This document shows positions 1,507 through 63,372 of a DNA stretch of 64,000 bases, piece by piece. This DNA is from Candidatus Dormiibacterota bacterium (GTDB lineage Bacteria; Chloroflexota; Dormibacteria; Aeolococcales; Aeolococcaceae). The position numbers and the translations under genes are program-made. The stretch is taken from assembly GCA_963709585.1 (NCBI GenBank), contig CAVPXI010000014.1, forward strand, positions 192,001 through 256,000, in the 5' to 3' direction. The number at the start of each line of letters is the position of its first letter. Position 1 is the first letter of the stretch. A model generated the notes under the pieces. The model made no database searches. It was not told the DNA's origin and saw nothing but the letters and a program-made list of their open reading frames with translations.

Positions 1507-2335
1507 CACGGGCTCCCAGTACATCTCCCTTAGCCCGTATCGCAGCGTCCGCTACAGCCACGCAGAACTCCGGTACGTGCATTCCTATCGACGCGCCAAC
1601 ATCGATCGCAACATTGTTCATTGCCGAAACTACGCCATCGTTGTATGTGGACATGCCGTCTCCAATGCGAGCCGAGAGATGGTATACCGTCGCGGCCGCG
1701 ATTCCGCGGCCATTTAGAGCTGCAAGGCGGCCAACGCCGGCCGCGTCAATTCCCATCCCGGCGTCGTTGTAAACCGCCGCGAGAGCGTCGACGTGCAACG
1801 CTTCTTTGGCGTGCCCCCCGAGCAGCGCGCCGTGCGAACCGGTCACGAGAATCTGACCAGTGTCCGACTGGCGCACCAGTGAGACTAAGTCGAGCGCCCA
1901 GATCCCAGGCTGACCCTCGCGCGCGAGATGACGAGACTCCCGGATCGGGGGCACATCGCGGTTAAGCGGCTCGGCGCCCTCGAAGAGGCGTGCGGCGACT
2001 GCCGACGGCGCACCGACCGTGCACCCCAAAACTGTCCCGGCGTGATTCACATGTGTGATGACGCCGCGCCTGAGTGTGTCAACCGCATCGCCGATCCGCG
2101 CAGTGTCGTGGCCAACCGTAGCCGCGGCAATGCCAAGGTCGTCGAGCCACGCAAGCCCCGAGTACCCTGCGTCGTCCCGGCCGCCGCCAGCGTCATTGAA
2201 GATAATGGCCGTGGCTCCACGTGATGCTGCCACATACGCTGCATACACTGCTCCGTGAGAGCCGGTGATCACTAGCGTACTCACGTTGTGCCCCAGTCGC
2301 GTGACACTGTCAACGAGGATCAAATGTCGCCCCAC
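1496..2335 (-). CDS. Conserved hypothetical protein with two internal repeats of a GSHG...NDAG...ARIGD domain
   Basis: 279-aa ORF overlapping both neighbours; two alignable halves. Confidence 0.8.
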   Translation of the reverse strand: MGRHLILVDSVTRLGHNVSTLVITGSHGAVYAAYVAASRGATAIIFNDAGGGRDDAGYSGLAWLDDLGIAAATVGHDTARIGDAVDTLRRGVITHVNHAGTVLGCTVGAPSAVAARLFEGAEPLNRDVPPIRESRHLAREGQPGIWALDLVSLVRQSDTGQILVTGSHGALLGGHAKEALHVDALAAVYNDAGMGIDAAGVGRLAALNGRGIAAATVYHLSARIGDGMSTYNDGVVSAMNNVAIDVGASIGMHVPEFCVAVADAAIRAKGDVLGARDAD

Positions 2336-3186
2336 GAAGACGGGCGGCTCCCTCGACGCGATCCATTCGTACCCTCGTCCCGTCTGACCATGTCACGAAA
2401 TGCCGCGATGGGCGGTCGCTTGCCGGACGGACCAATCGACGCCTCCAGTTTCGCTGCTTCCGCGAGGAGCCAACGCACTACCGACTGACGTCGCCGACCC
2501 ACAAGGCGGCTGCTTACAGCGGCGACGCTGATCGCCGCTACCGGCTGTCCGTTGCTCCCGCGGACGGGCACCCCTACGGCGCTCATGTCCGGAATCACGC
2601 GCGCATCATTGAGAGCGTACCCCTCGCGCCAACTCCGCTCGACCAACGAGCGAATGATGGAGGTATTGAGCTTTCCGAATGATCGATACCGCTCCGAATT
2701 GGCCTCAATGCAACGGTCGGCTTCGTCATCACGGAGGAAGGACAGAACGGCGAGACTGCCTGCGCCGACGCCGAGGGGGCGTCGGTCGCCGACGTTCAGC
2801 GTCAGCGTCTTGATGGGAAAGCTCCCCACGACCCTCTCGACGCACACCGCCTCGATGCCGCTGCGCGCCGTCAAGAAGACGGTGTCGCCGGTACGATCTG
2901 CAAGACGGTGCATGCCCTCTATGGCGAGTTCCGAAAGCCCGAAACGATTGGCCGCGGCCGCACCGATGGTCAGCAGTTCAAACCCTGGGTAGAGCGTGGT
3001 GTCGTCCGCGTCCTGCTCCACAAGGCCCGAGCGAATCAGCGTGCTCAGGATGCGGTGAGAGGTCGACTTGCTCAGTCCCGTCATCGTGCTGACTTCACCG
3101 AGTCGCACGCCGAGGCCTCGTCGGCTGCACACCGACCGAAGCACCGAAATCGCTCGATCGATGCTCTGAACGCTCGGCGTTTCCAT
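2320..3186 (-). CDS. IclR-family transcriptional regulator
   Basis: N-terminal VQSIDRA...GLSKSTSHRILSTL HTH; C-terminal G(R/D)RRPLGVGAGSLA, GYALN, AVGVPV effector domain. Confidence 0.95.
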   Translation of the reverse strand: METPSVQSIDRAISVLRSVCSRRGLGVRLGEVSTMTGLSKSTSHRILSTLIRSGLVEQDADDTTLYPGFELLTIGAAAANRFGLSELAIEGMHRLADRTGDTVFLTARSGIEAVCVERVVGSFPIKTLTLNVGDRRPLGVGAGSLAVLSFLRDDEADRCIEANSERYRSFGKLNTSIIRSLVERSWREGYALNDARVIPDMSAVGVPVRGSNGQPVAAISVAAVSSRLVGRRRQSVVRWLLAEAAKLEASIGPSGKRPPIAAFRDMVRRDEGTNGSRRGSRPSSWGDI

Positions 3187-3222
3187 TGAAGCGATCCTCC
3201 CCGGGGGAGCTGCTCTTCAGCC

Positions 3223-3278
3223 TTGACCGGCCGTACTGCTGTCCCGTAGTATGGCACCCCTATCCCATCCAGTGGAAT
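3223..3278 (+). promoter_or_regulatory. Sigma70-type promoter (TTGACC-N18-TAGTAT) with two imperfect 17-bp palindromes, candidate IclR operators
   Basis: TTGACC 3223-3228, TAGTAT 3247-3252; palindromes GTCCCGTAGTATGGCAC (3241-3257) and ATCCCATCCAGTGGAAT (3262-3278) in the divergent iclR/PTE gap. Confidence 0.6.
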
Positions 3279-11682: not shown

Positions 11683-12656
11683 GTCGGCTCACCCTGGATC
11701 GGGTAGTGGCACGCGACCCGCTGCGTGGTGTCGATTGCTTCGAGAGGCGGTTCCGTGGCACACACTTCGGTTGCACGCTCGCAGCGGTCGCGGAACGGGC
11801 AACCAGGCATTGGATCGAGGGGGTTCGGCGCTCTTCCCGGAATGGAGTAGAGCGGTTTGCCAGGACGTGGGACAGACCGCAGCAGTGCTCCTGTATAAGG
11901 ATGCGCGGGGCAGGTGAGGACCGTCCTAACGTCTCCCAACTCCATGACCTTGCCGCCGTACAACACGGTCACGGTGTCGCAGTACTGGGCAACGACACCG
12001 AGGTCATAAGTCACCAAGATCATTCCTGCGTTCTCGCTCCTCGCGCGCCCAAGAATCAACTCGAGAATCTGACGTTGCAAGGTAAGGTCGAGTGCGGTAG
12101 TCGGTTCATCCGCGATGACCAGATCGGGGCCCAGGAGAAAGGCCATGGCGATAACGACGCGTTGAGCCATCCCTCCACTCAGTTCATGCGCATGGCCCGA
12201 GAGAACCCGATCGGGTTCCCTGAGCCCCACCAACTCCAGCATCGAGGCGGATCGGACCCGATCCTCGTGTCGCGATGTCGACACTCCGTGAGCTCGCAAG
12301 ATCATTCGGAACTGCTGCTCTATTGTCAGAATCGGATGCAGGGCACCCATACTGTTCTGTCCGACGTAGCCGATCCGTGACCCTCGTACACGTCGTAGCT
12401 GTTGGCGTGGAATAGTTAGCAGATCGCCTTTGTCGGCGAAAATTGCTGTGCCATTGATGACCCTCGCGGCACTGCCCGAGAGCCCAAGAATCGTTCGCGC
12501 CACGGTGGACTTGCCGCTTCCAAACTCGCCGACCAGCCCTCGGATCTCTGCATTCGCAAGCTCCATATCGACGCCACGAACCGCCGGGAGGTGGCCAAGG
12601 CGGGTCGCGTAGCTCACCTCGAGACCAGTGACCCTGAGCAAACACGTTTCAGTCAT
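11673..12656 (-). CDS. Oligopeptide/nickel/opine-type ABC transporter ATPase (OppD/DppD-like)
   Basis: GEFGSGKS, LSGGMAQR, IADEPTTALD, HPYT, C-terminal GCPF..RC...C...ACH; start placed at ATG overlapping the permease stop. Confidence 0.92.
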   Translation of the reverse strand: MTETCLLRVTGLEVSYATRLGHLPAVRGVDMELANAEIRGLVGEFGSGKSTVARTILGLSGSAARVINGTAIFADKGDLLTIPRQQLRRVRGSRIGYVGQNSMGALHPILTIEQQFRMILRAHGVSTSRHEDRVRSASMLELVGLREPDRVLSGHAHELSGGMAQRVVIAMAFLLGPDLVIADEPTTALDLTLQRQILELILGRARSENAGMILVTYDLGVVAQYCDTVTVLYGGKVMELGDVRTVLTCPAHPYTGALLRSVPRPGKPLYSIPGRAPNPLDPMPGCPFRDRCERATEVCATEPPLEAIDTTQRVACHYPIQGEPTWR

Positions 12657-13507
12657 AGGGAGGTACGAATCTGGTCCAACTCGACCAACGTGTCTGCGAT
12701 CACATTGAAGGAAAGCACTGAGACGCATATCGCAGCTCCGGGGAATACGACGAGCCACCACTGCCCGGCGATCAAACCGTTAGCTCCAGATTGGATCATC
12801 TGCCCCCAGCTGGGAGTCGGTGGTTGCACTCCGATTCCCAGAAAGCTCAACGAGGCAATGGCCACAATGGATAAGGCAAGGATCAATGACGTTTGTGCCA
12901 GGATCAGTTCGCGGAGGTTCGGGAGAAGGTGCCGTCGCATTACACGGTAGGGTGACGCTCCGGTCGCCCGAGCTGCTTCGATGAACCGCAACTCACGCAA
13001 CGTGAGGACATGACTCCTGACGAGACGGATGTACAGTGGAGCACCGAAGATCGCGATCGCGATCACCACCATGTACAGCTGATTCCCGCTCAATCCGACG
13101 AGGGCGAGGATGAGCACCAACAAGGGAAGCGACTGGAATCCATCCAGGACTCGCATGGCGCGCTCGCCCCATCGCCGAGATACGCTGAAAAGGATGCCGA
13201 GCGGGACGCCGATGAACATCGCCACAGCCGTACCACCCATTGCGAGCGGGAGGTCAGTGCGCGCTGCACGAATCGTCCTTGAGAAGATGTCCGCGCCGAC
13301 CTCGTCTGTCCCAAACCAGAACGCACGGCTAGGAGGCTGTAGAACCGCTATCGCGTCCGTTAAGTCTGGGTTGTGCGGAAGCGGCAACACAAATGCCGCC
13401 AGGAGCAGAATCACAATGATTGCGGCCGCAATACCAAGCTGAATCCGCAACCGGAGAGCGCCCCGACCCCGCTTCGCGGTTCTCCGACGATCAGCGACGC
13501 TGAGCAT
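12653..13507 (-). CDS. ABC transporter permease (OppC/DppC-like)
   Basis: FGTDEVG, FIEAARATGA (EAA loop), HLLPN, SLSFLGIG..PPTPSWG. Confidence 0.95.
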   Translation of the reverse strand: MLSVADRRRTAKRGRGALRLRIQLGIAAAIIVILLLAAFVLPLPHNPDLTDAIAVLQPPSRAFWFGTDEVGADIFSRTIRAARTDLPLAMGGTAVAMFIGVPLGILFSVSRRWGERAMRVLDGFQSLPLLVLILALVGLSGNQLYMVVIAIAIFGAPLYIRLVRSHVLTLRELRFIEAARATGASPYRVMRRHLLPNLRELILAQTSLILALSIVAIASLSFLGIGVQPPTPSWGQMIQSGANGLIAGQWWLVVFPGAAICVSVLSFNVIADTLVELDQIRTSL

Positions 13508-14630
13508 TGAAGGTGATTCTGGGGTCCAGGCGCGCTGACAAAAGATCCAGGGCGAAGAAAAGGACCAGCGTCACCGAGCCGCTCAACAGGACAAACCCTT
13601 GCACTGCAGGGATGTCAAGACGCTGGATGGATTGCACTGCGTATTGACCCACCCCGTTCCACGAGAACACGATTTCGACGATCGCATCACCGCCGATCAG
13701 CCCGGCGAGAATGATCGCGCCATAGGTGAGGAGAGAGGTGCGACCGACCAGCAGGGCATTGCGGACGAGGCGCCACTCCGACAGCCCGCAGGCCCGACCA
13801 AACCGCACATATTCCGAGGCGAGTGCGGATCCGAGGACGGCACGAGTGGTCCGTCCGAAGGCGACCGAGTAGACGATACCGAGGGTAACGACTGGGAGGA
13901 TCTCCTGCTTGATTGCATCGATGAGCGTGCCCCATTGACCGGCGAGGATCGTGTCGACGAGGATCGATCCGGTCACATGCGGCGGTGCGGTGTCTGCCAG
14001 TGGAAGCGTCCCTGATGGACCGGGAGCGACGTGAAGCACGGTGAACAGCACCACGATCAAAAGAAGGGCCAGGAGAAAGTCCGGCACTGACTGGATAAGT
14101 GTCAGCAGAAACCTCGTCAGGGTGTCAACCGGCCTCCGAGCATAATAGGCACCGAGCGTTCCGAGTGCGAGACCCAGCACCAGGGCGAGGAGAAGCGCCG
14201 GCACGATCAGGTCGAGGGTGGCTGGCAGGCGGCTCCCTAGCTCCTCGGCGACCGGTAATCCCGAGAAGAACGATGTCCCCAGGTCGCCGTGCACCACGCC
14301 TCCGATGTAGGTGAGATAGCGAGTGCCAATCGGTTGGTCGAGGCCCAATCGGTGATTCGTGGCGGCGATCTGCTGGGCCGATGCCTCCGGCCCGTCGAGA
14401 CTTTGAGCGATGTCGCCGGGGGTCACCGTCACCAGCGCGAAGGACAGCGTGACGATGGCGAGGATGCTGATCGGGAAGACGAGGATCCTTGTGAAGAAAA
14501 ATCGCTGCGCTCCGCTCATGCGCGGACGACGGGTCATGCCACCCGGTGTGTCCGCTGCGGCAGTGCGCACGGGTCCGAGCTCGGGTTGCACGGGCAGCGC
14601 TACGTTGGCGGGCTCGTCGTCTGCAGGCAC
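13491..14630 (-). CDS. ABC transporter permease (OppB/DppB-like)
   Basis: PGD, LGLDQP..RY, GDLGTS, RLPATLDL, IVEIVFSWNGVG; exact start uncertain. Confidence 0.93.
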   Translation of the reverse strand: MPADDEPANVALPVQPELGPVRTAAADTPGGMTRRPRMSGAQRFFFTRILVFPISILAIVTLSFALVTVTPGDIAQSLDGPEASAQQIAATNHRLGLDQPIGTRYLTYIGGVVHGDLGTSFFSGLPVAEELGSRLPATLDLIVPALLLALVLGLALGTLGAYYARRPVDTLTRFLLTLIQSVPDFLLALLLIVVLFTVLHVAPGPSGTLPLADTAPPHVTGSILVDTILAGQWGTLIDAIKQEILPVVTLGIVYSVAFGRTTRAVLGSALASEYVRFGRACGLSEWRLVRNALLVGRTSLLTYGAIILAGLIGGDAIVEIVFSWNGVGQYAVQSIQRLDIPAVQGFVLLSGSVTLVLFFALDLLSARLDPRITFNAQRR

Positions 14631-14656
14631 CTAGCCATCCTATCGCTGACGGAACA

Positions 14657-14690
14657 AGGCAGCTCTCCGTGCGAACCAGGAGAGCTGCCT
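14657..14690 (-). terminator. 12-bp perfect stem-loop between the binding-protein and permease genes (attenuator or mRNA-stabilising hairpin)
   Basis: AGGCAGCTCTCC-N10-GGAGAGCTGCCT, followed by TGTT on the minus strand. Confidence 0.6.
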
Positions 14691-14771: not shown

Positions 14772-16392
14772 TCACGAAGTGAAGCTCATGTCGTCGAACC
14801 GTGGTGCCAGGTTCGGGTAGTCGAAGATGCCCGTAACATTCTTCGTCGTGATGTTGATAGTCGGTTGCTCAACCATCAGTATCTCGTTGACATCTGCCAC
14901 CGCAAGGTTGCAGGCGGTCAAGAGAGCCGCATCACTTGTGGCTCCAATCGTGCTCATCGCGGTCAAGATGCTCGAGTTCGAAGGCGGGATCCGAATAGAA
15001 TCCGTAGTTCGCTGGTGACTTGCTATAGAAGAAGCCGTCCAGGTAGTACCCAGCGCTGGCCACGAACGGGCTCTGGACCTCAAGCGCCAATGGCTGGTTG
15101 CCTTTGAGGAGAGCGTTAAGGTATGCCGTGAAGGTCGGGTAGCTATTGATCTTCACCGTGATGCCGACCTTGGAAAGTTGATCCTGAACGAAGAGCGATT
15201 GCTGATCCATGCCGTTGTCCAGGGACGGAGTGTAGATGAGAGTGGTTGAGAATCCATTCGGATACCCAGCCTGAGCGAGAAGAGACTTTGCAGCGGCATC
15301 GTTGGCGGTGAGGTTCGTGTTGTTGGTGAACCCCGGCACAGGAGTCGAGTTCGGTCCACAACCCGTCGGCACCTCACCGCCGCCTGGAAAGACAGCCTGC
15401 GCGATGGCTTGTCGATCGAGTGCCATTAGAACGGCCTGCCGCACCTTCACATTATTGAATGGAGCCGCCTTGAAGTTGGGAACCAACCGAGTGAACACGG
15501 GAGCATTGATGAGCCACGGCGTAATACTCGCGTTGGTCTTCAAGCTCGGGTAGTCGATTTGCGGGACTTGCCAAGCGTAGTTGGCTTGATTGCCCTCCAC
15601 GAGTTGAATGCGACTGGCACCGTCCGTGACCTGGCGCCAGACAACCTTCTTGATGGTTGGCGCGCCACGGAAGTAGCTCGGGTTCGCGACTAGGGTGATC
15701 TGGTCGTTTGGTGTGAAGCTCTGGACTTTGTAGGGGCCGTACGACGCCACGTTCGTAGTGAGCCATGTGCGCCCCCATGGATCCGACGTGGTGGCGTGCG
15801 CCTTGACAGTCGTGGAATCCAGAATGCCCAGGTACGGTTGGTCCAGGATGGACAGCGCTATCGGGCTTGGGGCTGTCAGATTGTATGTGAATTCTTTTGG
15901 ACTAATAATCGTGATCGGATTCTTGAGATTGACATTGGCGAGGATGAACAGAAGATTCCCGACGCCGCCCGCCGCGACCGAGCGCTGGAAACTCCATTGA
16001 ACGTCGGCGGACGTCAACGGGACGCCGGCGAAGCTCTTGATTCCGGAGCGGAGAATCATGTCGTAACTCTTCTGATCGGCCGACAGCGTGTAACTCGCCA
16101 CGAGCTCAGGCTTGAGGTTCGTCCCGAAGGTCAGCTCGTGATTCGGCTGCGCACCCGACGGATTCAGCGAAAAGAGATGCGCGACGATATTTTCCGTGAT
16201 AGGGAAGCTCTGCTGAGCGGCATTGAAGTCCGGCGGATCCGGGTCGAGGTTTCCCGGAGCGAACGCAGTGACTGCGGTCAGGGTGGTAGGGCCCGCCGCC
16301 GGCGTCGAGCTGCTGCCGCACGCCGATGCGACGAGGCCAAGCCCGAGGACCCCTACGCAAGCCACCGCCGGACGGACTCTGCTCCGATTCAT
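14772..16392 (-). CDS. ABC substrate-binding lipoprotein, family 5 (one +1 frameshift at 14974-14979, probably a sequencing artefact)
   Basis: Lipobox LVASAC; GPYKV, ANPSYF, PFNNVKVRQAV, AKSLLAQAGYPNGF; removing one base from GAGTTC joins ORFs 14932-16392 and 14772-15083 (DPAFDSSILTAM). Confidence 0.9.
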
Positions 16393-17625: not shown

Positions 17626-19051
17626 GTGAGCGACGCGTACGACGTCATCGTGGTTGGGGCCGGAACGGCGGGCATCCCTTGCGCAATCGAGGCGGCGCGC
17701 GGCGGAACTCCAGGTCCTCTTGTTGGAGAAGTCGGCTGACATCGGTGGGACCTTGCACGTCTCCGGCGGTCATATGTCGGCAGCAGGGACGCGCCGGCAG
17801 GCAAGTCATGGCCTCAAGGACAGCGTCGAGTTGCACGTGGCGGATGTCCTCCGGATTTCCGGAGGCACCGCGCCGGTAGAATTCGTGCAACTCGCAGCGT
17901 CCCATGCCGCGGCAACCGTCGACTGGCTGGATGAGAATGGATTCGATTTCAGTCCTGACACGCCCATCACGTACTACGGCCACGACGCGTACGGGGTCGC
18001 TCGCACCTATTACGGAAAGGACGCGGGCCGTTCGATTCTTGCCGTCCTGCGCCGCCTTCTCGATCAGGAGGTTCGCCCGGGAAGGGTGACGCTTCGCCTT
18101 GGTACTCCAGCCGAGGGATTGATCACCGAGGGCAACCGCGTTGTCGGCGTCGTCTGCGGTGACCGCGATTCGCGGGCAAGCGCGGTCGTCCTTGCCAGCG
18201 GAGGGTACGGCTCAAACCCCGAACTCTTCAAGGAGCTTGAAGGCAAGCCGCTGTTCAGTTCCACGGTTGCCGCTGCCACCGGTGACGGACTCCGCCTAGC
18301 ACAGTCGATCGGCGCGTCAGTCGCCCGGACGGGATCGTACCTGCCCACATTCGGTGGGATTCCGGACGAGGCTGGAGATCCTGTGCGCGTTCCTTGGCGA
18401 GAACGCCCCCGGCTGGTGGCCCAGGAGCGCACGCCCTGGGAGATCTACGTCGACCTGCGCGGAAGGCGCTTCATCGCAGAGGACGAGCCGAGCATGGACC
18501 GGAAGGAGCGCGCGCTCCTCGGTCTGGATCGGACCACCTTTTGGATGATCTGCGACGACCGAGCAGTGGACGAATCATCGCCTATGGTCGGAGACTGGTC
18601 TGCCGACTCCCTGCGTCAACGTGCCAACCGTCGTGCCGGCGTCCACAGCGCGCAGACGCTCGCCGCTGTCGCCGCCCTCGCTGGAATCGATCCAGATGGG
18701 CTCATGGCCACGGTGGCCGAATACAACCAGGGGGTCCGAATGCAATCTGACGCACTGGGGCGCCGGCTGCTGATGGCTCCGATCGATCGGCGCCCTTACT
18801 ACGCCATCCGCAACCATGGAACGAGTCTCCTGACTTTCGGTGGCATCGCGGTCGACATCGACCTCCGCGTGCAACGCGCCGACGGCTCGACCATCGATGG
18901 TCTGTTTGCGGCTGGTGAGGTCATCGGCGCGGCGACTCTCATGGGGAACAGCTTCTGCGGCGGAATGTCGGTAACGCCCGCGCTGACCTTTGGGCGCCTC
19001 ATTGGCCAGCGCCTCGCTCGGGCCCAGTCCAAGGCGAGCGATGCCCGATGA
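17626..19051 (+). CDS. FAD-dependent oxidoreductase, fumarate reductase/flavocytochrome c flavin-subunit family (+1 frameshift at 17705-17710)
   Basis: True N-terminus VSDAYDVIVVGAGTAG restored by deleting one A in GAACTC; VVLASGGY, TGDG, GRRFIAE, TFGGI, GLFAAGEVIG, ALTFGR. Confidence 0.88.
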
Positions 19052-20917: not shown

Positions 20918-22451
20918 CTTCCCGGCGTCGACTGCAACTCGTCCTTGATCTGTCGCTTGAGGATCTTTCCAGCCGCGTTCCGCGGCAGCGAATCGACGAA
21001 GCGAACCTCTTTTGGCAGCTTGTACCCGGCCAGAGATCCTCGCGCAAACGCAACCAGCTCCTCGGGCGAAGGTGCCTCGCCACGGGGAACGACCACGGCC
21101 ACGACGCGCTCACCCCACTTCTCGTCGGCTATACCCACGACCGCGACGTCAGCCACGGCCGGGTGCGTGTGCAGGACCTCCTCCACCTCGCGCGGGTACA
21201 CATTCGCGCCACCCGTGATGATCATGTCGCGTGCCCGGTCGACGATGTAGACATAGTTGTCCTCATCAACCACTGCGATGTCTCCAGCGCTGACGAAGCC
21301 ATCCTCGGTTGTTGCTTGCGCCGTGGCCTCTGGATCGTCGAGGTATCCACGGAATACCATGGGAGAACGGCTCCACAGCTCCCCGCGTTCACCTGCGGCT
21401 ACTGGCTGGCTATCCGGTCCCGTCAGTCGTACCTGCGTCATGAACCAGGGCGGCCCGACGCACCGCTCCTTGCGAAGTTGATCCGGTGGCCGGAGATTGG
21501 TAACGATCGACGCTTCCGTGGACCCGTACAGCTCGTGCAGGCCCGCTGTACGGAAGTTCTCGATCGTCCATACTTTGGCCTGCTGCGGCAGAGGCGCCGC
21601 GTTCACGTAGATAGTCGACAATGAGGAGGTGTCGCTCCGCGCGACGGTTCCATCTGGCAGTGCCCGCAACATCTGGATGTGCGCCGGTACCAGGAAGATC
21701 GAACTCGGTCGGTGCTGCGCGATCATCCGTAGGAGGAGTTCCGAATCGAAGGCGGGCATCATCGCGAGAGTGCCCCCCGTGACGCACGCCGCGTAGGCGA
21801 ATGCGAAGCCGGCGCCGTGGTACATGGGCGCAACCGCGATGGTCGTCTTCGCGGGCCCGAGGCCCCATTCGAGCGCCGTCAGGTAGAAGGTGATCGACCG
21901 CGAACGGTGACTGATCACCACGCCCTTGGGTTTGCCGGTAGTGCCAGCCGTGTAGCAGATGGTGAATGCATTGGTCTCGGGCACCTCGATGCGAGGGTCC
22001 ACCGCACGTGCACCATCCAGCACCAACTCGTAGTCATTGCCGAGACCGAGCGAATTCTCGATACCGGCAGTGGTCATGCCCGGCTCCACGACGCTGCGCA
22101 ACGCCTCGTCAAGAATCGCCGCCTGAGCGCGCGAGTGCTCGAGTATGTACGCCATCTCCGGTGCCGTAGAGTCGGGGGTTGATCGGCACCGAGACGAGTT
22201 CCAGCTTTCGCGAGCCCGCAGGCTATTTCCGGATACTCCAGCCGGTTGCCGGCGATCACCGCCACGCGGTCACCAACGTGCAAGCCGCGACCGATCATCG
22301 CTTGAGCCAGCCGCGAGGATCGCTCATCGAGTGCAGCGAACGTCAGTTCACGCGAGCCGTCGACTACCGCGACCGCATGCGGAGTCGCTATTGCAAATTC
22401 GCGCACGCCGTTGGCGATGTTCAGCTCCGCGCCAGTGGCCTGAGTCGTCAC
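20914..22451 (-). CDS. Acyl-CoA synthetase (AMP-forming), two +1 frameshifts near 22169 and 22196
   Basis: YTAGTTGKPKGV, YGSTE, GD, DRARDMIITGGANVYPREVE, PRNAAGK; corrected junction reads AGLVSVPINPRLTAPEM; span is 3n+2. Confidence 0.9.
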
Positions 22452-22452
22452 C

Positions 22453-26984: not shown

Positions 26985-28097
26985 TCACCGCCATCAAGCC
27001 GGTCCGTTTTCCGTGGTTCGACTACGCGCGCTATACGTTCTCGCTGGGGCTCAATGTCGGTGGTGGGGTAGCAATGCTCAGCGGCCACACCGCGTCGGAG
27101 TTCGATCCGGAGCAACGCACGATCGTTGTCAAGGGACCGGTTGGGCAGCAGGTTCGGACCGCCTACAACAAGATCGAGGCGATTCTCGAAGCCGCGGGTC
27201 TGACACTCGCCGACATCGTTCGCGTCGTCGAGTACGTCGCAGCCCCAGCCATCGGCGACTATGCGGAGATCGAACGTGTCCGTCGCGAGGTGCTGGCAGG
27301 CGCCGACCCGGCCGTCAACACGGTGTGCGTCACGCGGCTGCTCCGTCCCGAGGCGCTGCTTGAGATCGAGGTCGTGGCCAAGAAAGGCGGCGAGGACGAC
27401 CCGCTGGACGGCGTCGTGTACCTCCCGTCGTTGACCGCTCCGGACGAGGGCGACCTCCTCGCGCAGACCGCGGCAGTGTATGAGCAGGCATCGGCACTGC
27501 TCTCGTCACTCGGCCTCTCCATGGCCAATGTGACCAAGACAGTCGATTACTGCCCCGAGTTCGGTGCTCTCCGAGTACAGGTACACCGGTCGCGTCCGGA
27601 AGGAGCAGCTCGGACCTGTCTATCCAGGGGCAACCGGAATTCTGGTCGAGCGGCTTCGCCATCCGGATGCCCTGATCCAGGTCGACTTCATGGCGTCTCG
27701 GCATCCGCCCGAGGCGGTCAACCCCGGTTGGGAGCGGTACGCAAAGCTCACCTACAGCCCGGCGGTGAAAGCCGGTCGCGTCCTGTTCATGTCGGGCCAG
27801 GCTGCGCTCGACCCACCGTCGGAGCAAGCACTGTTTGCCGGCGACGTGGTCGCGCAAGCCGACTATACGTACGGCAACATCGTTGCCGTCCTTCAGGCGG
27901 CAGGGCTGGGGCCCGAAGATCTGGTGAAAACCATCGAATACGTGTTGCCGGAGGCACTCAACGACTACCGCCAGGTTGCCGAGGTCCGTGCCCGCCGTTT
28001 GAGTGAGCCCTATCCGGCCTCGACAGGCCTCGTCATCCCCAAGCTGTTACGGCCCGAGTTTCTGATCGAGATCGATCCTATGGCGCTCTTCCCGTGA
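26981..28097 (+). CDS. Triple-domain RidA/YjgF-family protein (+1 frameshift at 27557-27562)
   Basis: Three consecutive RidA-like units ending LLEIEVVA, LIQVDFMA and LIEIDPMA; deleting one T in GAGTTC joins ORFs 26981 and 27564. Confidence 0.85.
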
Positions 28098-28552: not shown

Positions 28553-28933
28553 AAGCAGGAGAGGTCCTGCCCGCGCTCGAGCGCACGCTCGACCTGGCGT
28601 CGCTAGTCGCCTATGCGGCCGCGACGTGGGACTGGTACGGCTTGCACTATGACCCTGTCGTTGTCGCCGCTCTGGGGTTACCGCAGCCTTTGGTGGATGG
28701 GCAGATGCTCGGCGCACTACTCGCCGAGCACGCACTCTCCTGGGCGCCGAAAAATGCCGAGGTCAAGCGAATGGGATTTCGCTTCAGTTCGATGGTGTTC
28801 GCGGGTGACACCGTGCGCGTTGAGGGCGAGGTCGAGTTCGGTCGCTGAACATACCGTTCGGCTGACTCAGCGGGTCCTGGTCGGCGACAACGAGGCCGTC
28901 ACGTCTGCCTGGATAGAACTTCTGCTGACGTGA
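28549..28933 (+). CDS. MaoC-like dehydratase, second hotdog subunit (+1 frameshift at 28834-28839)
   Basis: YAAATWDWYGLHYD, G...G, F...VFAGDT; corrected C-terminus ESVAEHTVRLTQRVLVG. Confidence 0.85.
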
Positions 28934-31621: not shown

Positions 31622-32392
31622 CATCGAACTCAGGAGCGCGACCGCGTCCTCTACCTTGTTCTCGACCGCCCTGGCGCCCTCAACGCCATCAACGAGGCTG
31701 TCCTCGACCACCTGGAATCGACGTGTCGCGTGGTTGAAGATCGCGACGACATTCGCGCCCTCGTGATCACGGGCGTCGGCGACGTGTTCTCCGTCGGCAT
31801 GGATCTGACGTGCCTCGAGCGGGGATTCGAGGATCACGTGTTCTTTCGAGAATTCCTCGAGCGTTTCCATCGAATCCTGTTGCGCCTGGAACGGCTCCCG
31901 GTGCCAACCGTCGCGGCAGTCAATGGGCTCACTCGAGCGGGCGGCTTCGAACTGCTGCTCGCCTGCGATCTGGCGGTGTGTGCTGACGAGGCTCAGATTT
32001 CCGACAACCACACGCAGTTTGAAGTCATCCCAGGAGGCGGCGCTACGCTGCGCGCGCCGCGCCGGCTCGGTATGCAGCGCGCCAAGGAGTTGATCTTCAC
32101 GGCGCATTGGATTGACGGCAGGGCCGCCGAACGCATCGGTCTGGTCTTGCGCTCGGTCCCCCGCGCGTATCTGGACGACAGCGTCGACGAGCTGGTGGCC
32201 GCGTTCCGCGAGAAATCGCGTGACTGCCTGTCGGCCGCGAAAGCTGCTATTAATAACGCGTCCGACCAGAGTGTCGAAGCAGGTTTGCGGATCGAGCTCA
32301 GCGAGTTCTTCAGGTATCTCGATGAGTCGCCGGACCCCTCCGAGGGGTTTCGCGCCTACCTCGAGAAGCGTCCGCCCACGTGGCGCTCCTAG
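31618..32392 (+). CDS. Enoyl-CoA hydratase/isomerase (crotonase) (+1 frameshift at 31626-31631)
   Basis: Restored start MTSTQERDRVLYLVLDRPGALNAI; FSVGMDL, AAVNG...AGGFEL, PGGG, EGFRAYLEKR. Confidence 0.9.
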
Positions 32393-35577: not shown

Positions 35578-36376
35578 GTGAGCCTCATCAGGAGTTGGCT
35601 GTTTGCGCCTGGGCACAACGAACGGATACTTGCCAAACTGTTCGACTCTGGTGCGGACGCTGTACTGCTCGACCTCGAGGACGCCGTGCCTGAGGCGCTG
35701 AAGGATCACGCAAGAGCACTCGTGAGTTCGGTGCTCGAGGCGCATCCGGAGTCGTGGGTTCGCATCAACAAGCCACGCACCGCGGCCGCCGAGGCCGACC
35801 TTGCCGCGATCTTCGGTCGCTGCGCCGGTATCCGAATCCCCAAGGTGGAGTCGCCTGATGAGGTGCGATGGGTTGCGGAGCGAGCTCCGGCCATTCCGCT
35901 CACGTGCACCATCGAGAGCGCGCGCGGCGTGATGCTGGGGTACGAGATTGCTGCATGTGAGTGCACTCAGGACCTCACGCTCGGCGCTGCCGACCTCGCA
36001 CTCGACCTCGGGGTCGGGAGCGGGTTCGAGGAGTTGCTCTTTGCTCGATCGTCGCTGGTGGTGGCAGCCCGCGCGGCAGGCAAGCCGGCACCGATCGACG
36101 GCGTGTTCACCCGCCTCGATGATCCGGCTGGCCTCCGCGAAGAGGCTCTGACTGCACGTCGACTTGGGTATTTTGGCAAGTCGGCAATCCACCCGCGCCA
36201 GGTGCCGGTAATAAACGATGTGTTCACGCCAACCCCCGAGGAGCTCGCGTGGGCACAGCGAGTTCATCGATGCATTCGAACAAGCAGGTGGTGCAGCGAC
36301 CAAGCTGCATGATGGGGAGTTCGTCGACGTGCCGGTCGCCAAACGCGCGCGCCGCCTCTTGAAGGAGAGACGGTGA
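35578..36376 (+). CDS. CitE/HpcH-type (citramalyl/malyl/citryl)-CoA lyase (+1 frameshift at 36260-36265)
   Basis: RSWLFAPG, DAVLLDLEDAV, VRIN, PKVE, IESARG, G..D, GKSAIHPRQ; corrected tail RVIDAFEQAG...GEFVDVPV. Confidence 0.92.
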
Positions 36377-38585: not shown

Positions 38586-40111
38586 TCAGCCGGTGTCGCC
38601 GGCGAGCGCTGCTTTGAGGACCTTGCCGCTTCCGGTGCGAGGCAACTTTGCGGAGAACGCCATGCTCCGAGGCAACTTGTAGGGAGCAAGGAGGCGCCGG
38701 CAGTGTTCCAGCAACTCGGCTTCAGAGGCCCTCACACCGGCATTCAGCACAACTACGGCGTGGACACGTTCTCCCCATCGCGCGTCGGCAACTCCCAGGA
38801 CCGCCGCGTCGCGCACGGCAGGATGGGCCATCAGAACCTCCTCCACCTCTCGCGGGTAGATCCCCACTCCCCCGGATTTGATGACATCCGATCGACGTCC
38901 GACGACGTAGATATAGCCCGCGTCATCTAGGCGGGCGAGGTCCCCCGATGTTGCGAATCCGCCGTGAAAGGCGGCATCCGTTGCCTTGGGATCACGGTGA
39001 TATCGACTGAACAGGAACGGGCTGCGCGAGTAGAGCTGTCCGATTTCGTTCGTCATGGTCTCACGCATGTCGTCGTCGTAGATTCGCACTTCGTTGAGCG
39101 CGAGCGGACGCCCTACGCAACGCTGCTTGCGAAGCTGATCCTCAGGCCGGAGTGACGCTACGGTGCCGCATTCCGTGGATCCGTAGATCTCGAACAGGCG
39201 GGCGTTGCGCCACTGTTCGAGGATCAGTGTCTTTAGATGTTCGGGCAGTGCCGACGCATTCGAGAGAAGGGTTACCGCCGTGCTCGACTGCGGGCGGAGC
39301 CGAGGCGCGAGATCGAATATGGCGGCGAACATCGTCGGCACCATGAAGGTCGTGGTGACGCGCCCTGAGTTGAGCTCGGCCACATGTCGCTCAGGATCGA
39401 ACCCTGGGTGCAGCACAACGGAGCCACCGAAGATGAGCGGCGCTATGGCGCGCGTGAGTCCCGCTGGATGGTACATCGGTGTTGCGATCAGGCTCGTATC
39501 AGAGCTCGTGTAGCAGCCGTACTCCTGGCCAAGCAGCAGCATCAGCCCCGTTCGCGCGCGGTGAGAGATGACCGCAGCCTTTGGCTTGCCGGTGGTGCCC
39601 GACGTGTACCCAAAGAACAAGGGGCTGTTCTCGTCCACGTCACGGGCGATCAGCTGTTCCGCGCTGGCTTCGATGAGTTCGGATACCGAGCGAAGTCCTC
39701 CTTCGGTGTTCCCAGGCGTGGATCTGGACTCCCCCACTTCGCCAACCGTCCATGGCGTCTTCGAGCCGGTCCGCTACAGCGTCATCAGTCAACAGCGCAC
39801 GCATCCCGCTGGAACTCGACGAAATGCGCCAGCTCTCGCTCGGTAGACCCGTAGGGTATCGGGGCGAGCGTGAGCCCGGCTCGGGCGATCCCCAGTGTCG
39901 CTACGAAGTATTCTGGCCGATTGGTGAGCATCAGCCCGACCCGTTCGCCTGATTGCAAGCCAAGTCCTTCGCCCAAGGCTATGGCCAAGCGCCGCGATCT
40001 CAACTCGAGAGCTTTGTAGGTCCACGAACTGTCTCCGTAGATGACAGCGACCTTGTCAGCATTTGCGCGAGCCGCTGCGGCAAATGCGTCATGCAGGCAC
40101 AAACCAGGCAT
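38586..40111 (-). CDS. Acyl-CoA synthetase (AMP-forming), two +1 frameshifts (39812-39817 and probably 39692-39697)
   Basis: YTSGTTGKPK, YGSTE, SGD, GRRSDVIKSGG, PRTGSGK; N-terminal part in ORF 39785-40111; span is 3n+2. Confidence 0.88.
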
Positions 40112-43631: not shown

Positions 43632-45764
43632 TTAGGTCACGGTCACAGTGACGGCAGTCGAGGTCGTCGAATTACCGGCGTTGTCCGTGGCCACGGCCGT
43701 CAGCCGGTATGTCCCACGCTTGACCTTGGAGGTGTTCCAGATGAACGTGTACGGGCTCGTCTTTATGGTGTCCAGCTTGGTGGTCCCGAGGTAGAAGATC
43801 ACGTTAGCGATACCAGAGGGCGCGCCCGAGCCGGTGCCCACATCGGACGCGCTGGCCGTGACCCTCACCCTCGTGCCCACGGCAAAGCTCGATCCCGATA
43901 TTGGCGATGTGATGAAGACCACCGGCGGTGCGGCGTCGATCTTGATCGTCTGGGACTTGACGGCCCCCGTGTTCCCCGCGGCGTCCACCGAGCAGTACTG
44001 CACGATCGTTGTCTGCGACACTGCGAACGAGCCGGTGTACAGGATCGCGGTCGTGCTGGTCTGCGGGTTGGTGCCGTCAGTGGTGTAGTAGGTGGCGGCA
44101 ACACCCGAGCCACCGGTGTTGTCCGTGGCCGTCAGGGCAACCGTCACCGGAGATGTCTTGTACCAGCCCGTGGAGCACGTGGTGTTGTTGCAGGTGATGG
44201 CCGTCGTCGGTGCAATGGTGTCGATCTGGATGGCCTGGGACTTGACGGCCTCAGCATTGCCGGCGTTGTCCACCGAGAAAAACTTGACGGTGGTCGTTGT
44301 CGACGCCGTGAAGGGCGCGGTGTAGACCGTGCTCGAGGTGGTCGGCGTCGAGCCGTTGGTGGTGTAGTAGGTGGCCTTGACACCGGAGCCGCCAGTGTCG
44401 TCCGTGGCCGCCAGGGCGACGGTCACCGGCGTGGTGTTGTACCAGGCCGTGCACGTGGCGCTGTTGCAGGTGATCGTGGTCGTTGGCGGGGTGGTGTCGA
44501 CCTGGATCTGCATCGCTTGGGTGCTGCTGGTAGTGCCACCGGGGGTGGTCACGCTGATAGGCCCGGTGGTGGCCCCTGCCGGGACGGTGGCGGTGAGCTG
44601 GCTGCCGGAGGTCACGGTGAAGGCGGCGGCGGTGCCGTTGAAGGACACCGCGCTGGTTCCTGTGAAGCCGCTGCCCTCGACCGTCACTGAGGTCCCGGGC
44701 CAGCCAGAGGTAGGCGTGAACGAGGCGATGGTGGGGGCGGGCGCGGGTGCCGGGCTAGGGATGGGCAGCGGGGTGGCCGTGGCGCCGTTGTTGGGGGCGG
44801 TGCCCAGACCGAAGTAGTTGTAGAGCCCGGCCTCCAGGCTGTAGTGCGTGTAGGGGGTGCCGTCCGTGGACCCCGGGGTCACCCCTGCCCCGACCGCAAG
44901 CGCCACGACATGCTCCCACGGCGTCGTGTTGATCGACCCCTCGTCCCAGGTGATCACCACGGTCACGCCGGGCTGGGCCAGCAGCGAGGGGACCACCGAG
45001 GCCAGCCAGTTGTCACCCATGCCGATCACGCTGGTGCCGCCGTTCGAGCCGAAATAGGCGGGGCAGGCCTGGCCGCTGCCAGGCAGGGTGTGCATGTCGT
45101 CGCACTGGTTGGGCACCACGTAGCTGAACGCAGGCAGGCTGGCCGGGTTGAAGCTGGTGGTGGTCATCGGCACGTCGTTGGTGGAGCAGGTCGAGTTGGC
45201 TCGGTATTGGTAGTCCGGGTCATGGCTGGCGGTATAGAGCGGGACCGTGGTTCCGGGAATGTTGGCGTAGTTTCCGTTTGCGCAATTTCCAGGCATCAAC
45301 TCCATGAACTCCTTCCACGTCAGCACGCCGCCGGTGCCGTCGATGGCCTGGAAGATGTTGGGCGATGGAGGGGACGGCGAAGAGGTCAGACCGCTGGTCA
45401 TGGCCGTGTAGTCCGGCGTGCTGCTCGGGGCTACCGCCGTGTAGTTGGTGAACAGCTCCCAGTTGGCAATCAACTGGTTCAGGTACGGGGCCTGCGTATT
45501 GCCGACGATGCTCCCGTACGGTTCGTTCTCCTCAACGATCACCACGACCTTGCCGCTTTGGGCGGTAGTTGTCGCGGTATTGCCGTTGGAAGTCGAGCCC
45601 GAGACGTTCCCTGGCACCGCCGTCGCCGCTCCCGCGTGGACCGAGGTCAGTCCCTCACCACTCGGCGGCCCAGCAGCCTGTACGTTCAGGGCGCCGGCTC
45701 CTCCCGCGAACGCAGCCAACACGAGCAGCGCGCTCACTCTCCGGACCCGCCTGCCCATCATCAT
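43632..45764 (-). CDS. Secreted phosphoesterase (acid phosphatase/PLC family) with IPT/TIG, two chitobiase-C/FN3-associated repeats and a C-terminal Ig-like domain
   Basis: Signal peptide; VVVIVEEN, VVPNQCDDMH, ITWDE, YTHYSL; PTIASFTPTSG (IPT); TYYTT(N/D)G..P twice; LTAVATDNAGN. Confidence 0.88.
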   Translation of the reverse strand: MMMGRRVRRVSALLVLAAFAGGAGALNVQAAGPPSGEGLTSVHAGAATAVPGNVSGSTSNGNTATTTAQSGKVVVIVEENEPYGSIVGNTQAPYLNQLIANWELFTNYTAVAPSSTPDYTAMTSGLTSSPSPPSPNIFQAIDGTGGVLTWKEFMELMPGNCANGNYANIPGTTVPLYTASHDPDYQYRANSTCSTNDVPMTTTSFNPASLPAFSYVVPNQCDDMHTLPGSGQACPAYFGSNGGTSVIGMGDNWLASVVPSLLAQPGVTVVITWDEGSINTTPWEHVVALAVGAGVTPGSTDGTPYTHYSLEAGLYNYFGLGTAPNNGATATPLPIPSPAPAPAPTIASFTPTSGWPGTSVTVEGSGFTGTSAVSFNGTAAAFTVTSGSQLTATVPAGATTGPISVTTPGGTTSSTQAMQIQVDTTPPTTTITCNSATCTAWYNTTPVTVALAATDDTGGSGVKATYYTTNGSTPTTSSTVYTAPFTASTTTTVKFFSVDNAGNAEAVKSQAIQIDTIAPTTAITCNNTTCSTGWYKTSPVTVALTATDNTGGSGVAATYYTTDGTNPQTSTTAILYTGSFAVSQTTIVQYCSVDAAGNTGAVKSQTIKIDAAPPVVFITSPISGSSFAVGTRVRVTASASDVGTGSGAPSGIANVIFYLGTTKLDTIKTSPYTFIWNTSKVKRGTYRLTAVATDNAGNSTTSTAVTVTVT
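43931..44512 (-). repeat. Two tandem ~96-aa domain repeats inside the phosphoesterase gene
   Basis: DTTPPTTTITCNSATC.AWY.TTPVTVALAATDDTGGSGV versus DTIAPTTAITCNNTTCSTGWYKTSPVTVALTATDNTGGSGV; boundaries approximate. Confidence 0.8.
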
Positions 45765-56857: not shown

Positions 56858-57507
56858 GCAGCAGCTCCGGGGTGATGTCGACCAGCGAGTCGATCACGAC
56901 GTGGGCGTGACTGATGTCACCGGCCAGCGCGCCGTCCGAACGGAGCCCGATGCAGCGCATGCCCGCCGCGATGGCGGCGGTGACACCGACCGGTGAATCC
57001 TCGATGGCGACGCATGACGACGGCATCACGTCGAGCGCTCGCGCGGCGCTGATGTACACGCCGGGATCGGGTTTGCCGCGCTCCTCGTCATCCGCGCTGC
57101 ACACCGCGTCGACAAGCTCGCCGATGCCCAGCCGGTCGACCACCGCGTTGATCAGCTCTCGAACTCGACGAGGAAGCGATCGCAACGCGGAGCCCGGCGT
57201 CGCGCGCGGTGTGGATCGCCTCGACCGCACCGGGCATCGAGACGCCGTGCGCGCGCACGTGTTCGACCATCTCGCGGATGATCTCGCGCTCGACGGCGCG
57301 CGGCCGGATGCCGTTCCACGGCCGGACCCGGTAGCGGTAGTCGACGACCTCCTCGATGCGCATGCCCCAGGTCTCGCGCAGTTGCGCGTCGGTCAGCTCG
57401 ACGCCGACGCGGGCAAACACGTCGTGCTCGGTCTCACGCCACACCGGCTCGGTGTCGATCAGGACTCCGTCCATGTCGAAGACGCAGGCGGAGATCGTCC
57501 TCCCCAT
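56844..57507 (-). CDS. HAD-family sugar phosphatase (+1 frameshift at 57161-57166)
   Basis: [32 protein letters not shown]; corrected junction SSSRELINAV. Confidence 0.9.
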
Positions 57508-61213: not shown

Positions 61214-61257
61214 GCGATGACCATCCTAACCTCGAGGCTCGCGCACGCGACCTTTGG

Positions 61258-62631
61258 TCACCCGGGCGCGGCGAGGGCTCCCGCAGGCGCCTGACGGTCG
61301 GCGAGGGACATGCCGCCGAGGTCGGAGAGCACGTTGACGACATTGCCCACCACGAGCGTCGAGGGTGGCTCGAGGCGAGCCGCACGCGCCGCCGCGGCGA
61401 TGCTTCCGATCGGAGCGCGCACCACCTGCTGCTCCGCTGTGGTCGCCTGGGACACGATCGCCGCGGGCCGGTCGGGACCGAGCACCGCCGAGAGGCGTCC
61501 GGCGATGGCGTCGAGCTCGGCCGGCATCAGAACGACCAGGGTGTCGACGCTCTTCGCAAGTTCGTCGAACGCAGCCAGATCGCCACCCGCGCGGTGACCG
61601 GTCACGAAGGCGACCGACGCTGCGACGCCCCGATGGGTCACCGGTATCCCGGCCGACGCCGGAGCCGCAAGCGCCGCGCTCACACCGGGAATCACCCGAA
61701 CCGGGACTCCGGCACGTTGCAACGCCAGGACCTCCTCGCCACCCCGGCCGAAGAGGAACGGGTCGCCGCCTTTCAGGCGCACCACCAGGTCCCCGGCGCG
61801 AGCGGCGGCGATCATCGCGTCGTTGATGCCGGCCTGCGCCGCCGACCGGCGGCCCGAGCGTTTGCCGGCATCGACGAGGCGTGCGCGGGGGCCGCAGAGC
61901 CGCAGGACCTCGGGACCGATCAGCGCATCGTGAAACACGACGTCGGCGTCGGCGAGAACAGCCCGGGTACCCATGGTCAGCAGGTCCGGATCCCCTGGTC
62001 CCGCTCCGGCGAGGACGACCTCGCCCATCGGCACCCCGCGGTCGGTGGCGTGCGCGCTCTGCTCGATCGTCAGTGCCAGGGCGGCGGCGGCGTCCTGGCT
62101 GCCCTCATGAAGCATTCCGAGCGCCCGGGATCGGAGCAGCCGCCGGTAGGCGCGCTGCTGGGCATCGCCCGAAACCCCGGCCCGGCGCAGCCGGCGTCGC
62201 ATCCGCCCCGTCAATGTCGTGAAGGGCCCCCACTCCGCGCCGAGCATCGACTCGATGCGCTCCCGCAACGCGCGCGCAAGAAATGGGCTCTCGCCGGAGG
62301 TGGAGATCGCAACCTGGAGCGGACCGCGCCGCACGAGCGCGGGAGCGATCCAGTCGCACTGCGGGGTGACGTCGACGACGTTGAGGAGCACGCGCTCGCG
62401 GTCCGCCTCGGCGCGTGCGGCCCGCTGGCCGTCCGGATCGTCGCTCGCGTCGATCGCGAGGTACGCACCCACCAGGTCACCGGGCTGAAACCCGCGCCGG
62501 AGGTGGATGGCGCTTGCGCCGCTGGCGCGAAGGCCTGCGGCTTTCTCCTCGGCGAGCGGGGTGTTGCCGAGCACGACGCAGCGCCGCTCGTGGAGATCCA
62601 GGACGACCGGGTAGTAGGCGGCCGCTTTCAT
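61258..62631 (-). CDS. cysG: Siroheme synthase (dehydrogenase/chelatase plus uroporphyrinogen-III methyltransferase)
   Basis: YYPVVLDL, LLNVVD...CD, VAISTSGESP, GAGPGDPDLLT, VRLKGGDPFLFGRGGEE, PGVS, PVTHRG. Confidence 0.93.
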   Translation of the reverse strand: MKAAAYYPVVLDLHERRCVVLGNTPLAEEKAAGLRASGASAIHLRRGFQPGDLVGAYLAIDASDDPDGQRAARAEADRERVLLNVVDVTPQCDWIAPALVRRGPLQVAISTSGESPFLARALRERIESMLGAEWGPFTTLTGRMRRRLRRAGVSGDAQQRAYRRLLRSRALGMLHEGSQDAAAALALTIEQSAHATDRGVPMGEVVLAGAGPGDPDLLTMGTRAVLADADVVFHDALIGPEVLRLCGPRARLVDAGKRSGRRSAAQAGINDAMIAAARAGDLVVRLKGGDPFLFGRGGEEVLALQRAGVPVRVIPGVSAALAAPASAGIPVTHRGVAASVAFVTGHRAGGDLAAFDELAKSVDTLVVLMPAELDAIAGRLSAVLGPDRPAAIVSQATTAEQQVVRAPIGSIAAAARAARLEPPSTLVVGNVVNVLSDLGGMSLADRQAPAGALAAPG

Positions 62632-63372
62632 CACACGGCACCTTGCCGTGCGGGCACCTCCGCCGGCTCTGGAGCGCCCGCCACCTCGATCGGCGGATGC
62701 AGCAGGCACTCCTTGTGGGCATCGCTCTCCCACCACCAGCGGCCGGCGCGTTCCTGCTCCCCGGGTTGGGTCGCCCGGGTGCACGGAGCGCAGCCGATCG
62801 ACATGTAGCCGCGGTCGTACAGCGGATGATGAGGGATGCCGTGGTCGCGGAGGTAATCCCATACCTGCTCTCGAACTCCAGGACGCGAGCGGCACCACCT
62901 TGGTCATGCCCTCGTGCCCGGGATCGCTGGCGACCACCGGGGTCGCCGCGCGCGTCGGGGTCTGATCTCGGCGGAGTCCGGTGATCCACGCGTCGTACTC
63001 CTGCAGCGCCCGCGCCAGCGGGTTCACCTTGCGCACCGCGCAGCACTGGTTGCGCAACGCCACCGACTTGCGGAACGGCATGTCGCCGTGCTCCGAGGTC
63101 ATCGCCTCCAGCTCGTTTGATTCCGGGGCGAGGATGCGCAGGCGTATCGGGAACTGCTCGCGCACATATTCGATGTAGTCGTGCGTCTCTTCGTGCAGGC
63201 GCCCGGTGTCGAGCGTGAGCACCTCGGGCGCGGGGACGATCTTGCAGGCGAGATCGATCAGGACCATCAACTCGGCCTGGAAGCTGGCGACCAGCGCGAC
63301 GCGACCGAATCTCCGGTACGTCCACGCGAGGATGTCCTCGGCGGTCGCGTTCTGCAGGTCGGTTGCGTTCAC
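62631..63372 (-). CDS. cysH: APS/PAPS reductase, [4Fe-4S] APS-reductase type (+1 frameshift at 62873-62878)
   Basis: SFQAE, LDTGRL, CCAVRKV.PL, WITGLRRDQ; after correction HPLYDRGYMSIGCAPCT, RAGRWWWE, KEC.LH. Confidence 0.92.

Follow-up and report, generated by a model that had tools for sequence, protein, structure and literature searches.

Genes broken at GACTC/GAGTC in a Candidatus Dormiibacterota genome: assembly artefacts that probably trace a modified DNA motif

Consensus errors at modified motifs are an already known class of artefact in long-read data. An unusually frequent case, largely in the form of a one-base insertion, is described here for a stretch of Candidatus Dormiibacterota DNA in which genes appear broken at the motif GACTC/GAGTC (GASTC, S being C or G). 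The whole stretch of 64,000 nucleotides, positions 192001-256000 of contig C14 of the genome G000, is called the window; the genome has 3.52 Mb in 24 contigs, 66% G+C and an estimated completeness of 88.8%. The closest described cases come from Oxford Nanopore Technologies (ONT) sequencing. In native DNA, G-to-A and A-to-G errors are reported to be raised and concentrated at methylation motifs, exceeding 50% at some sites (bioRxiv 10.64898/2026.01.14.699587). In agrobacteria GANTC is over-represented at ONT assembly errors (PMC12710330, Table S5), with 359-410 occurrences reported for an older model and fewer for methylation-aware models. For Brucella a few GANTC-linked errors are reported, together with the remark that miscalls can also fall on the neighbours of a methylated base (PMC12392509). 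On the enzyme side the nearest described type is that of CcrM and M.HinfI, solitary beta-class methyltransferases (PF01555) of GANTC specificity, conserved within their lineage and found in a housekeeping context. Type IIS systems of GAGTC specificity, PleI, MlyI and N.BstNBI with their methylases, are also related in kind, as asymmetric GAGTC methylated on both strands amounts to GASTC.

The broken genes at GASTC are assembly artefacts and not real lesions. We consider it probable that they are systematic consensus errors of long-read, most likely Nanopore-only, sequencing at GASTC, caused by a base modification which is most likely N6-methyladenine (m6A). The proposal is that the errors are confined to one short motif because this motif carries the modification: m6A at the A of GA(C/G)TC would distort the signal of the G-A step, GACTC would then be read as GAACTC and, more rarely, GAGTC as GAAGTC or AGAGTC, and the G at the first base of GASTC could be miscalled as A. 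As in the ONT cases, the errors fall on one short motif, G-to-A changes lie beside the presumed m6A, the calls look like high-fraction single-nucleotide polymorphisms (SNPs), and the errors are absent from short-read data. Unlike in those cases, the gene-breaking one-base insertion (GA to GAA) is here the most damaging form, the motif is GASTC and not GANTC, the per-site rate is 15/34 in the checked stretch, and both platform and methylation are presumed for G000.

An earlier note on this DNA had named 19 coordinates: ten genes repaired by deleting one base from GAACTC/GAGTTC, two further +1 events at the motif, five G>A substitutions at its first base and two G-run deletions. The letters are as described at all 19 (ten GAACTC/GAGTTC, GAGTC after an A at 22169, GAAGTC at 39692, five AACTC/AAGTC and two G/C runs). 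Gene breaks were assessed by a Pfam scan of 52 stop-to-stop frames around the sites, which are as follows.

14974..14979, gene on the minus strand: GAGTTC with a spurious T (true GAGTC); SBP_bac_5 binding protein, C-terminal tail cut
17705..17710, gene on the plus strand: GAACTC with a spurious A; FAD_binding_2 flavoprotein, broken after its GxGxxG N-terminus
22168..22173, gene on the minus strand: AGAGTC with a spurious A ahead of GAGTC; AMP-binding CoA ligase, second +1 event
22196..22201, gene on the minus strand: GAGTTC with a spurious T; the AMP-binding CoA ligase also hit at 22168
27557..27562, gene on the plus strand: GAGTTC with a spurious T; middle RidA-like domain of a three-domain open frame
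28834..28839, gene on the plus strand: GAGTTC with a spurious T; MaoC dehydratase, truncated
31626..31631: GAACTC with a spurious A; enoyl-CoA hydratase (ECH) frame cut off from the ATG at 31618
36260..36265, gene on the plus strand: GAGTTC with a probable spurious T; CitE/HpcH-like lyase, C-terminal part
39692..39697, gene on the minus strand: GAAGTC with a probable spurious A (true GAGTC); second AMP-binding CoA ligase
39812..39817, gene on the minus strand: GAACTC with a probable spurious A; second AMP-binding CoA ligase
57161..57166, gene on the minus strand: GAACTC with a probable spurious A; HAD hydrolase, split
62873..62878, gene on the minus strand: GAACTC (GAGTTC on the coding minus strand) with a spurious base; cysH (PAPS reductase), split
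12523..12527: AACTC, true GACTC; Walker A of an ABC ATPase
63269..63273: AACTC (coding GAG TTG, Leu); relatives carry Ser (GAG TCN) here
12008..12012: AAGTC, G>A suspected from the letters; H-loop region of the ABC ATPase
45298..45302: AACTC, G>A suspected from the letters
1887..1891: AAGTC, G>A suspected from the letters; open frame with no Pfam match

In most of these genes the break is evident from the domain matches. The FAD_binding_2 match of the flavoprotein starts at profile position 20 and its GxGxxG N-terminus is translated in another frame; the CoA ligase at 22196/22169 matches the AMP-binding profile at positions 3-71 and then 78-384; the MaoC match (profile 12-101) ends at the site and is followed by a stop; PAPS_reduct is matched at 2-143 in one frame and at 143-175 in the next. 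The ECH frame gains a start only by being joined to the ATG at 31618; this ATG overlaps the stop of an acyl-CoA dehydrogenase in the form ATGA. The second CoA ligase matches AMP-binding at 1-91 (ending at about 39811) and, after a gap, at 153-384; as profile positions 92-152 are missing between the two frames, two shifts are needed, at 39812 and about 39692. For the HAD hydrolase the matches to profile positions 1-136 and 125-191 meet at the site, where the phase test described below gives an insertion-type flag. The domain of the CitE/HpcH-like lyase ends at about residue 230 of a 244-residue frame and a plausible C-terminus lies in the next frame, so that Pfam and translation together make a spurious T at 36260 probable. 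The middle RidA-like domain is missed by Pfam because it is split at 27557.

With this last error discounted, 26765-28094 on the plus strand holds three tandem RidA/YjgF-like domains in one frame with no stop between them, of which Pfam reports the first and the third only. As to the two breaks at G/C runs, the one at 49970 receives a deletion-type flag in both frame tests (GC3-phase and codon log-odds), and at 40621 an Amidohydro_2 domain has just its C-terminal half in frame.

The most direct evidence comes from contigs of four public soil-metagenome runs of one study (X1-X4), which were compared with window positions 12000-31999. X1 carries 88% of the sampled words of 22000-31999 and the other three runs 25-27%. 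The X1 contigs cover 12047-31999, with a gap at 15765-15844, at a depth of 11-17; X2-X4 are shallow (depth 2-5) and cover only part of the sites, and the contigs of such runs drop rare variants. X1 contigs omit exactly one base at 14977, 17706, 22168, 22199, 27560, 28837 and 31627, that is, at 6/6 of the listed GAACTC/GAGTTC sites of this region and at the suspected 22169 event. The omission is shared by X2 at 17706, 27560 and 28837 and by X3 and X4 at 22168, 22199 and 31627; at 14977 it is seen in X1 (depth 11.1 of 11.1). At all seven sites the corrected form has the full depth in every covering run, and at covered sites no contig of X1-X4 carries the window's extra base. All seven X1 indel differences (7/7) lie at the motif and break conserved domains; the sole other indels, at 21229 and 21233, are those of a single X4 contig, and X1 lacks them.

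The same contigs differ from the window by 62 substitutions, 40 of which were listed and classified. Eleven of these 40 restore GASTC and none restores GAWTC (W being A or T):

A>G at the first motif base, restoring GASTC: 12523, 12990, 13362, 16570, 17803, 17889, 20154, 20280, 22025 and 23632
T>C restoring GASTC in the run contigs: 19195

Position 12523 reads G in X1 (11.1 of 11.1) and in X4. Base-level comparison with relatives was dropped for window 12-32 kb, because their DNA is only 65-71% identical and the region is not syntenic. The cysH gene has relatives in 39/41 other genomes of the genus, and 29 copies of it were compared. At 62873 the frame is kept in 29/29 of them, ten of which read TGGAGTCG where the window has TGGAGTTCG. 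At 63269 Ser (GAG TCN) is found in 28/29 and the window has Leu (GAG TTG); the lone other Leu belongs to G044, a long-read-style genome.

Most of what the earlier note had claimed for single sites is thus borne out. The extra bases vanish in the run contigs wherever these cover them, and the +1 event in cysH is contradicted by every orthologue compared. Of the two further +1 events, that at 22169 is corrected by X1, X3 and X4, which omit the base at 22168, and that at 39692 is upheld by Pfam as a shift at about this position. Two of the five proposed G>A substitutions (12523 and 63269) are confirmed, and five was too low a count, as ten more substitution errors at the motif lie in 12047-26573.

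Within 12047-26573, among the listed differences, 19 GASTC sites are intact and 15 are wrong (15/34, 44%), against 0/56 wrong GAWTC sites (Fisher p = 4e-8). The statement that GAATC/GATTC is free of errors therefore holds among these differences, and a modification specific to GASTC gains support. The errors of the checked set divide into 15 of the GACTC orientation and 3 of the GAGTC orientation, from which a consensus cannot assign strands.

The enrichment of indels at the motif, proposed in the same note as a check, was looked for in the whole genome with a test of the coding phase by G+C content at third codon positions (GC3). This GC3-phase test flags, at every position and on both strands, a confident upstream coding phase which changes by +1 downstream. 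GAGTTC ranks first of the 4096 six-mers (40 flagged against 10.0 expected, p = 8e-13) and GAACTC fifth (29 against 10.0), ranks 2-4 being overlapping words. A mild enrichment is seen for GAAGTC (13) and GACTTC (15), each with about 8 expected, and none for GAAATC, GATTTC and GAATTC (2, 2 and 3 flagged, about 3.5 expected). As the test detects 2/10 of the listed GAACTC/GAGTTC sites, these counts measure enrichment and are not a census. A frame classifier based on codon log-odds was dropped, since it found at best 2/10 of the listed sites in any setting, and a tblastn census of frameshifts in stop-to-stop frames between loci was rejected, being swamped by non-coding frames in short-read loci as well.

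The signature is also found in relatives. Their platform was read from the style of contig names only, and the short-read side of the comparison consists of one genome sample (400 kb of G016) and 14 short loci. The long-read-named relatives share an isolate prefix with a Nanopore-only collection, described as assembled with Flye and one round of Medaka (PMC12313526). Frequencies per kb in 400-kb samples, with AASTC/GASTT as the G>A-type error forms, are:

G016 (short-read-style): GASTC 1.58, GAACTC/GAGTTC 0.55, AASTC/GASTT 1.97, GAWTC 1.53
G000: GASTC 1.23, GAACTC/GAGTTC 0.72, AASTC/GASTT 2.57, GAWTC 1.53
G006 (long-read-style): GASTC 1.43, GAACTC/GAGTTC 0.73, AASTC/GASTT 2.71, GAWTC about 1.51
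G044 (long-read-style): GASTC 1.46, GAACTC/GAGTTC 0.78, AASTC/GASTT 2.70, GAWTC about 1.51

The phase test gives, for GAACTC and GAGTTC respectively:

G016, 400 kb: 0 and 1 flagged, 0.46 expected each, ranks 2602 and 599
G006, 400 kb: 7 and 7 flagged, 1.95 expected each, ranks 12 and 13
G044, 400 kb: 6 and 7 flagged, 1.23 expected each, ranks 9 and 5
G204 (more distant, long-read-named), 400 kb: 5 and 4 flagged, 0.58 expected each, ranks 4 and 8

The signature is thus present in three long-read-style relatives (G006, G044 and G204) and absent in the short-read-style G016. Over 27 syntenic loci GASTC occurs at 1.83/kb in the 14 short-read-named and at 1.35/kb in the 12 long-read-named ones. A conserved GAG TCG in the gene of one of the two methyltransferases presented below (MTase2) is intact in 12/12 short-read-named loci having the motif; it reads AAG TCG in G000, GAG TTG in the long-read-named loci L027 and L043, and GAGTTCG, with a frameshift, in the long-read-named L045, where the gene of the other (MTase1) is broken by GAAGTC.

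GASTC errors therefore hit the methyltransferase genes themselves in several long-read-style relatives. The single-contig genomes G044 and G045 of the genus are rated 88-90% complete and several few-contig ones 61-79%; frameshifts at GASTC may be lowering the completeness estimated from marker genes for the long-read genomes of this lineage.

A search for the enzyme that could write the mark, also proposed earlier, found two PF01555 (N6_N4_Mtase, beta-class N6/N4) methyltransferases on contig C7 of G000:

G000:C7:583360-584193 (locus L011 7361-8194): MTase1, PF01555
G000:C7:586185-586976 (locus L011 10186-10980): MTase2, PF01555

Each is present in 41/42 genomes of the genus, with full-length matches of 83-97% (MTase1) and 76-94% (MTase2) identity. 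The gene order is conserved: MTase1, then an acyl-CoA dehydrogenase and a small S-adenosylmethionine-dependent (SAM) methyltransferase on the opposite strand, then MTase2. The neighbours include folK, folP, an AhpC-like gene, an MMPL transporter, a CitE-like lyase and an SF1 helicase. Both methyltransferases have homologues in the signature-bearing G204 (54% and 63%). In a sample of 151 genomes from the phylum, MTase2 orthologues are confined to the organism's own family. Besides these two, G000 encodes a single PF02384 enzyme (C10) and a single C5 methylase (C4); no Dam-type enzyme was found in it. PF02384 was not found in G006, G044, G045 and G046 and, as G006 and G044 bear the signature, cannot explain it.

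The two genes recall the type IIS GAGTC systems in their number. They differ from these in being separated by the acyl-CoA dehydrogenase and another gene, and in that Pfam, which often misses nucleases, found no nuclease domain in 18 neighbouring L011 frames; that both belong to the core of the genus agrees better with solitary enzymes than with restriction-linked ones. With CcrM they share the beta class (PF01555), the solitary state, conservation in the lineage and the housekeeping context. On this footing the writer would be one or both of the two solitary beta-class methyltransferases, whose specificity cannot be read from their sequences. That one or both lay down a genus-wide housekeeping mark at GASTC is, in our estimate, an evenly balanced proposition, and the findings in G204 suggest that it would extend to the wider family.

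Several points weigh against the explanation by a modified base and long-read miscalling. The platform of G000 is not on record, and both its assembly from native-DNA nanopore reads and the methylation at GASTC are deduced. Published motif-linked ONT errors are mostly substitutions and a one-base insertion as main form is less documented; small indels are in fact listed apart from motif errors in the agrobacterial data (PMC12710330). Among solved structures the nearest to MTase1 is M.RsrI, and the nearest to MTase2 are a methyltransferase without a name and CcrM in its N-terminal half; those that are named recognise other sites. Of the listed substitutions 29/40 are not at GASTC, so window and run contigs also differ by strain variation or by other types of error. 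X1 may derive from the window's own sample, and the library type of X1-X4 is unrecorded. Finally, G136 has an orthologue of MTase1 (69%) and shows no signature, its platform being undocumented. No MTase2 orthologue was found in G136, and the rate of homopolymer breaks, tried as an indicator of its platform, was uninformative, so that this genome cannot separate MTase1 from MTase2.

The main rival holds that GANTC is methylated, by a HinfI- or CcrM-like enzyme, and that the basecaller or polisher fails only at GACTC/GAGTC and leaves GAWTC looking clean. Of the two methyltransferases (P0001 and P0002), P0002 (264 residues) aligns to the N-terminal half of CcrM (6pbd, 366 residues; E = 6.8e-17), GANTC is the error motif reported for agrobacteria (PMC12710330), and error rates are described as varying among motifs and contexts (bioRxiv 10.64898/2026.01.14.699587). 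We nevertheless regard this as unlikely. With errors as the only read-out, GAWTC bears no signature, whether in the listed sites (0/56 against 15/34) or in GAAATC, GATTTC and GAATTC at frame breaks; the agrobacterial motif was itself called as GANTC and not as GASTC (PMC12710330). Both enzymes are far below the cut-off of the CcrM equivalog NF050803, which at 830 bits is not reached by P0001 (73.3 bits) or P0002 (76.9 bits), and the P0002 alignment spans CcrM residues 16-153, thus ending at residue 153 of 366.

An error of the basecaller or polisher due purely to the sequence context of GASTC, in unmodified DNA, is improbable. An A2G/G2A bias is reported to persist in amplified DNA (bioRxiv 10.64898/2026.01.14.699587), and the modification itself has been deduced and not observed. 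Yet a 5-mer misread at a rate of 44% in the consensus would leave no bacterial nanopore assembly unspoiled, and some species are reported to have reached perfect genome assemblies (PMC12392509); motif-linked errors are also reported to drop with methylation-aware models (PMC12710330).

A modification of the G of GASTC, either phosphorothioate (dnd/ssp) or 7-deazaguanine (dpd), had been suggested in the earlier note on the ground that the G itself is miscalled; it found no support and appears very improbable. Islands of dnd and dpd genes are usually patchy in distribution, and the signature is common to several species in which the methyltransferases are conserved. In a search limited to DndC and TGT, leaving aside ssp and other dpd genes, G000 gave no match to DndC and a single TGT match (450.6 bits), with no second, DpdA-type paralogue; the genome being just 88.8% complete, such genes could lie in its missing part. 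A miscalled G beside m6A needs no modified G, since bases near a methylated base can be miscalled (PMC12392509).

That the strain truly carries the extra bases and the G>A changes, by pseudogenisation or motif-targeted mutagenesis, is scarcely credible: X1-X4 could contain a sister strain, and there are 29 non-motif differences, but the X1 indel differences lie at the motif in 7/7 cases, each disrupting a conserved domain, the damage reaches core genes, cysH among them, and the same error forms recur at orthologous sites in long-read-style genomes against 0/12 short-read-named loci.

In practical terms, the 64 kb contain about a dozen seeming pseudogenes that are artefacts. From the k-mer deficit relative to a congener, about a thousand GASTC sites may be wrong in the whole genome, several hundred of them as frameshifts, a figure that is rough, these being different species. 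At GAACTC, GAGTTC, AASTC and GASTT the genome G000 should not be relied on for gene calls, pathway inference or pseudogene counts, and no fewer than three further long-read-style genomes of the lineage (G006, G044 and G204) call for the same caution; re-basecalling or polishing would likely repair the errors. The fingerprint also points to methylation of a motif, with two solitary methyltransferases as candidates, in a soil lineage that is uncultured, and implies that an assembly by itself can suffice for guessing a methylation motif. Full-text literature searches brought up no report of a methylation motif in Dormibacterota, and the Nanomotif preprint mentions neither GASTC nor Dormibacterota in its main text, to which its supplements could add. 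A genus-wide mark at GASTC, if real, would be comparable to the systems of CcrM or Dam, would belong to a phylum that lacks a cultured model, and would have come to light as a fingerprint of assembly errors.

Some of the non-GASTC differences between window and run contigs also follow a pattern. At 17178, 17524 and 25644 the run contigs restore GCCGGC, which may be a second error-prone methylated motif, G000 having one C5 methylase (C4:347724-348632); GCCGGC is mildly enriched at frame breaks, likewise many G+C-rich six-mers. At 16802, 21421, 22088 and 24907 C or A is replaced by G right after TCC, giving TCCG in the run contigs, and eight T>C differences, several in C-rich contexts (e.g. 25501, 25775 and 26573), are without explanation; both groups may be strain SNPs or another systematic error. 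In each of the four runs, contigs break off or fork near 24500-24535, in a region (24483-24830) rich in loose ends and short joints; the likely cause is a conserved gene segment common to other members of the community, and relatives have their best DNA match in this same region.

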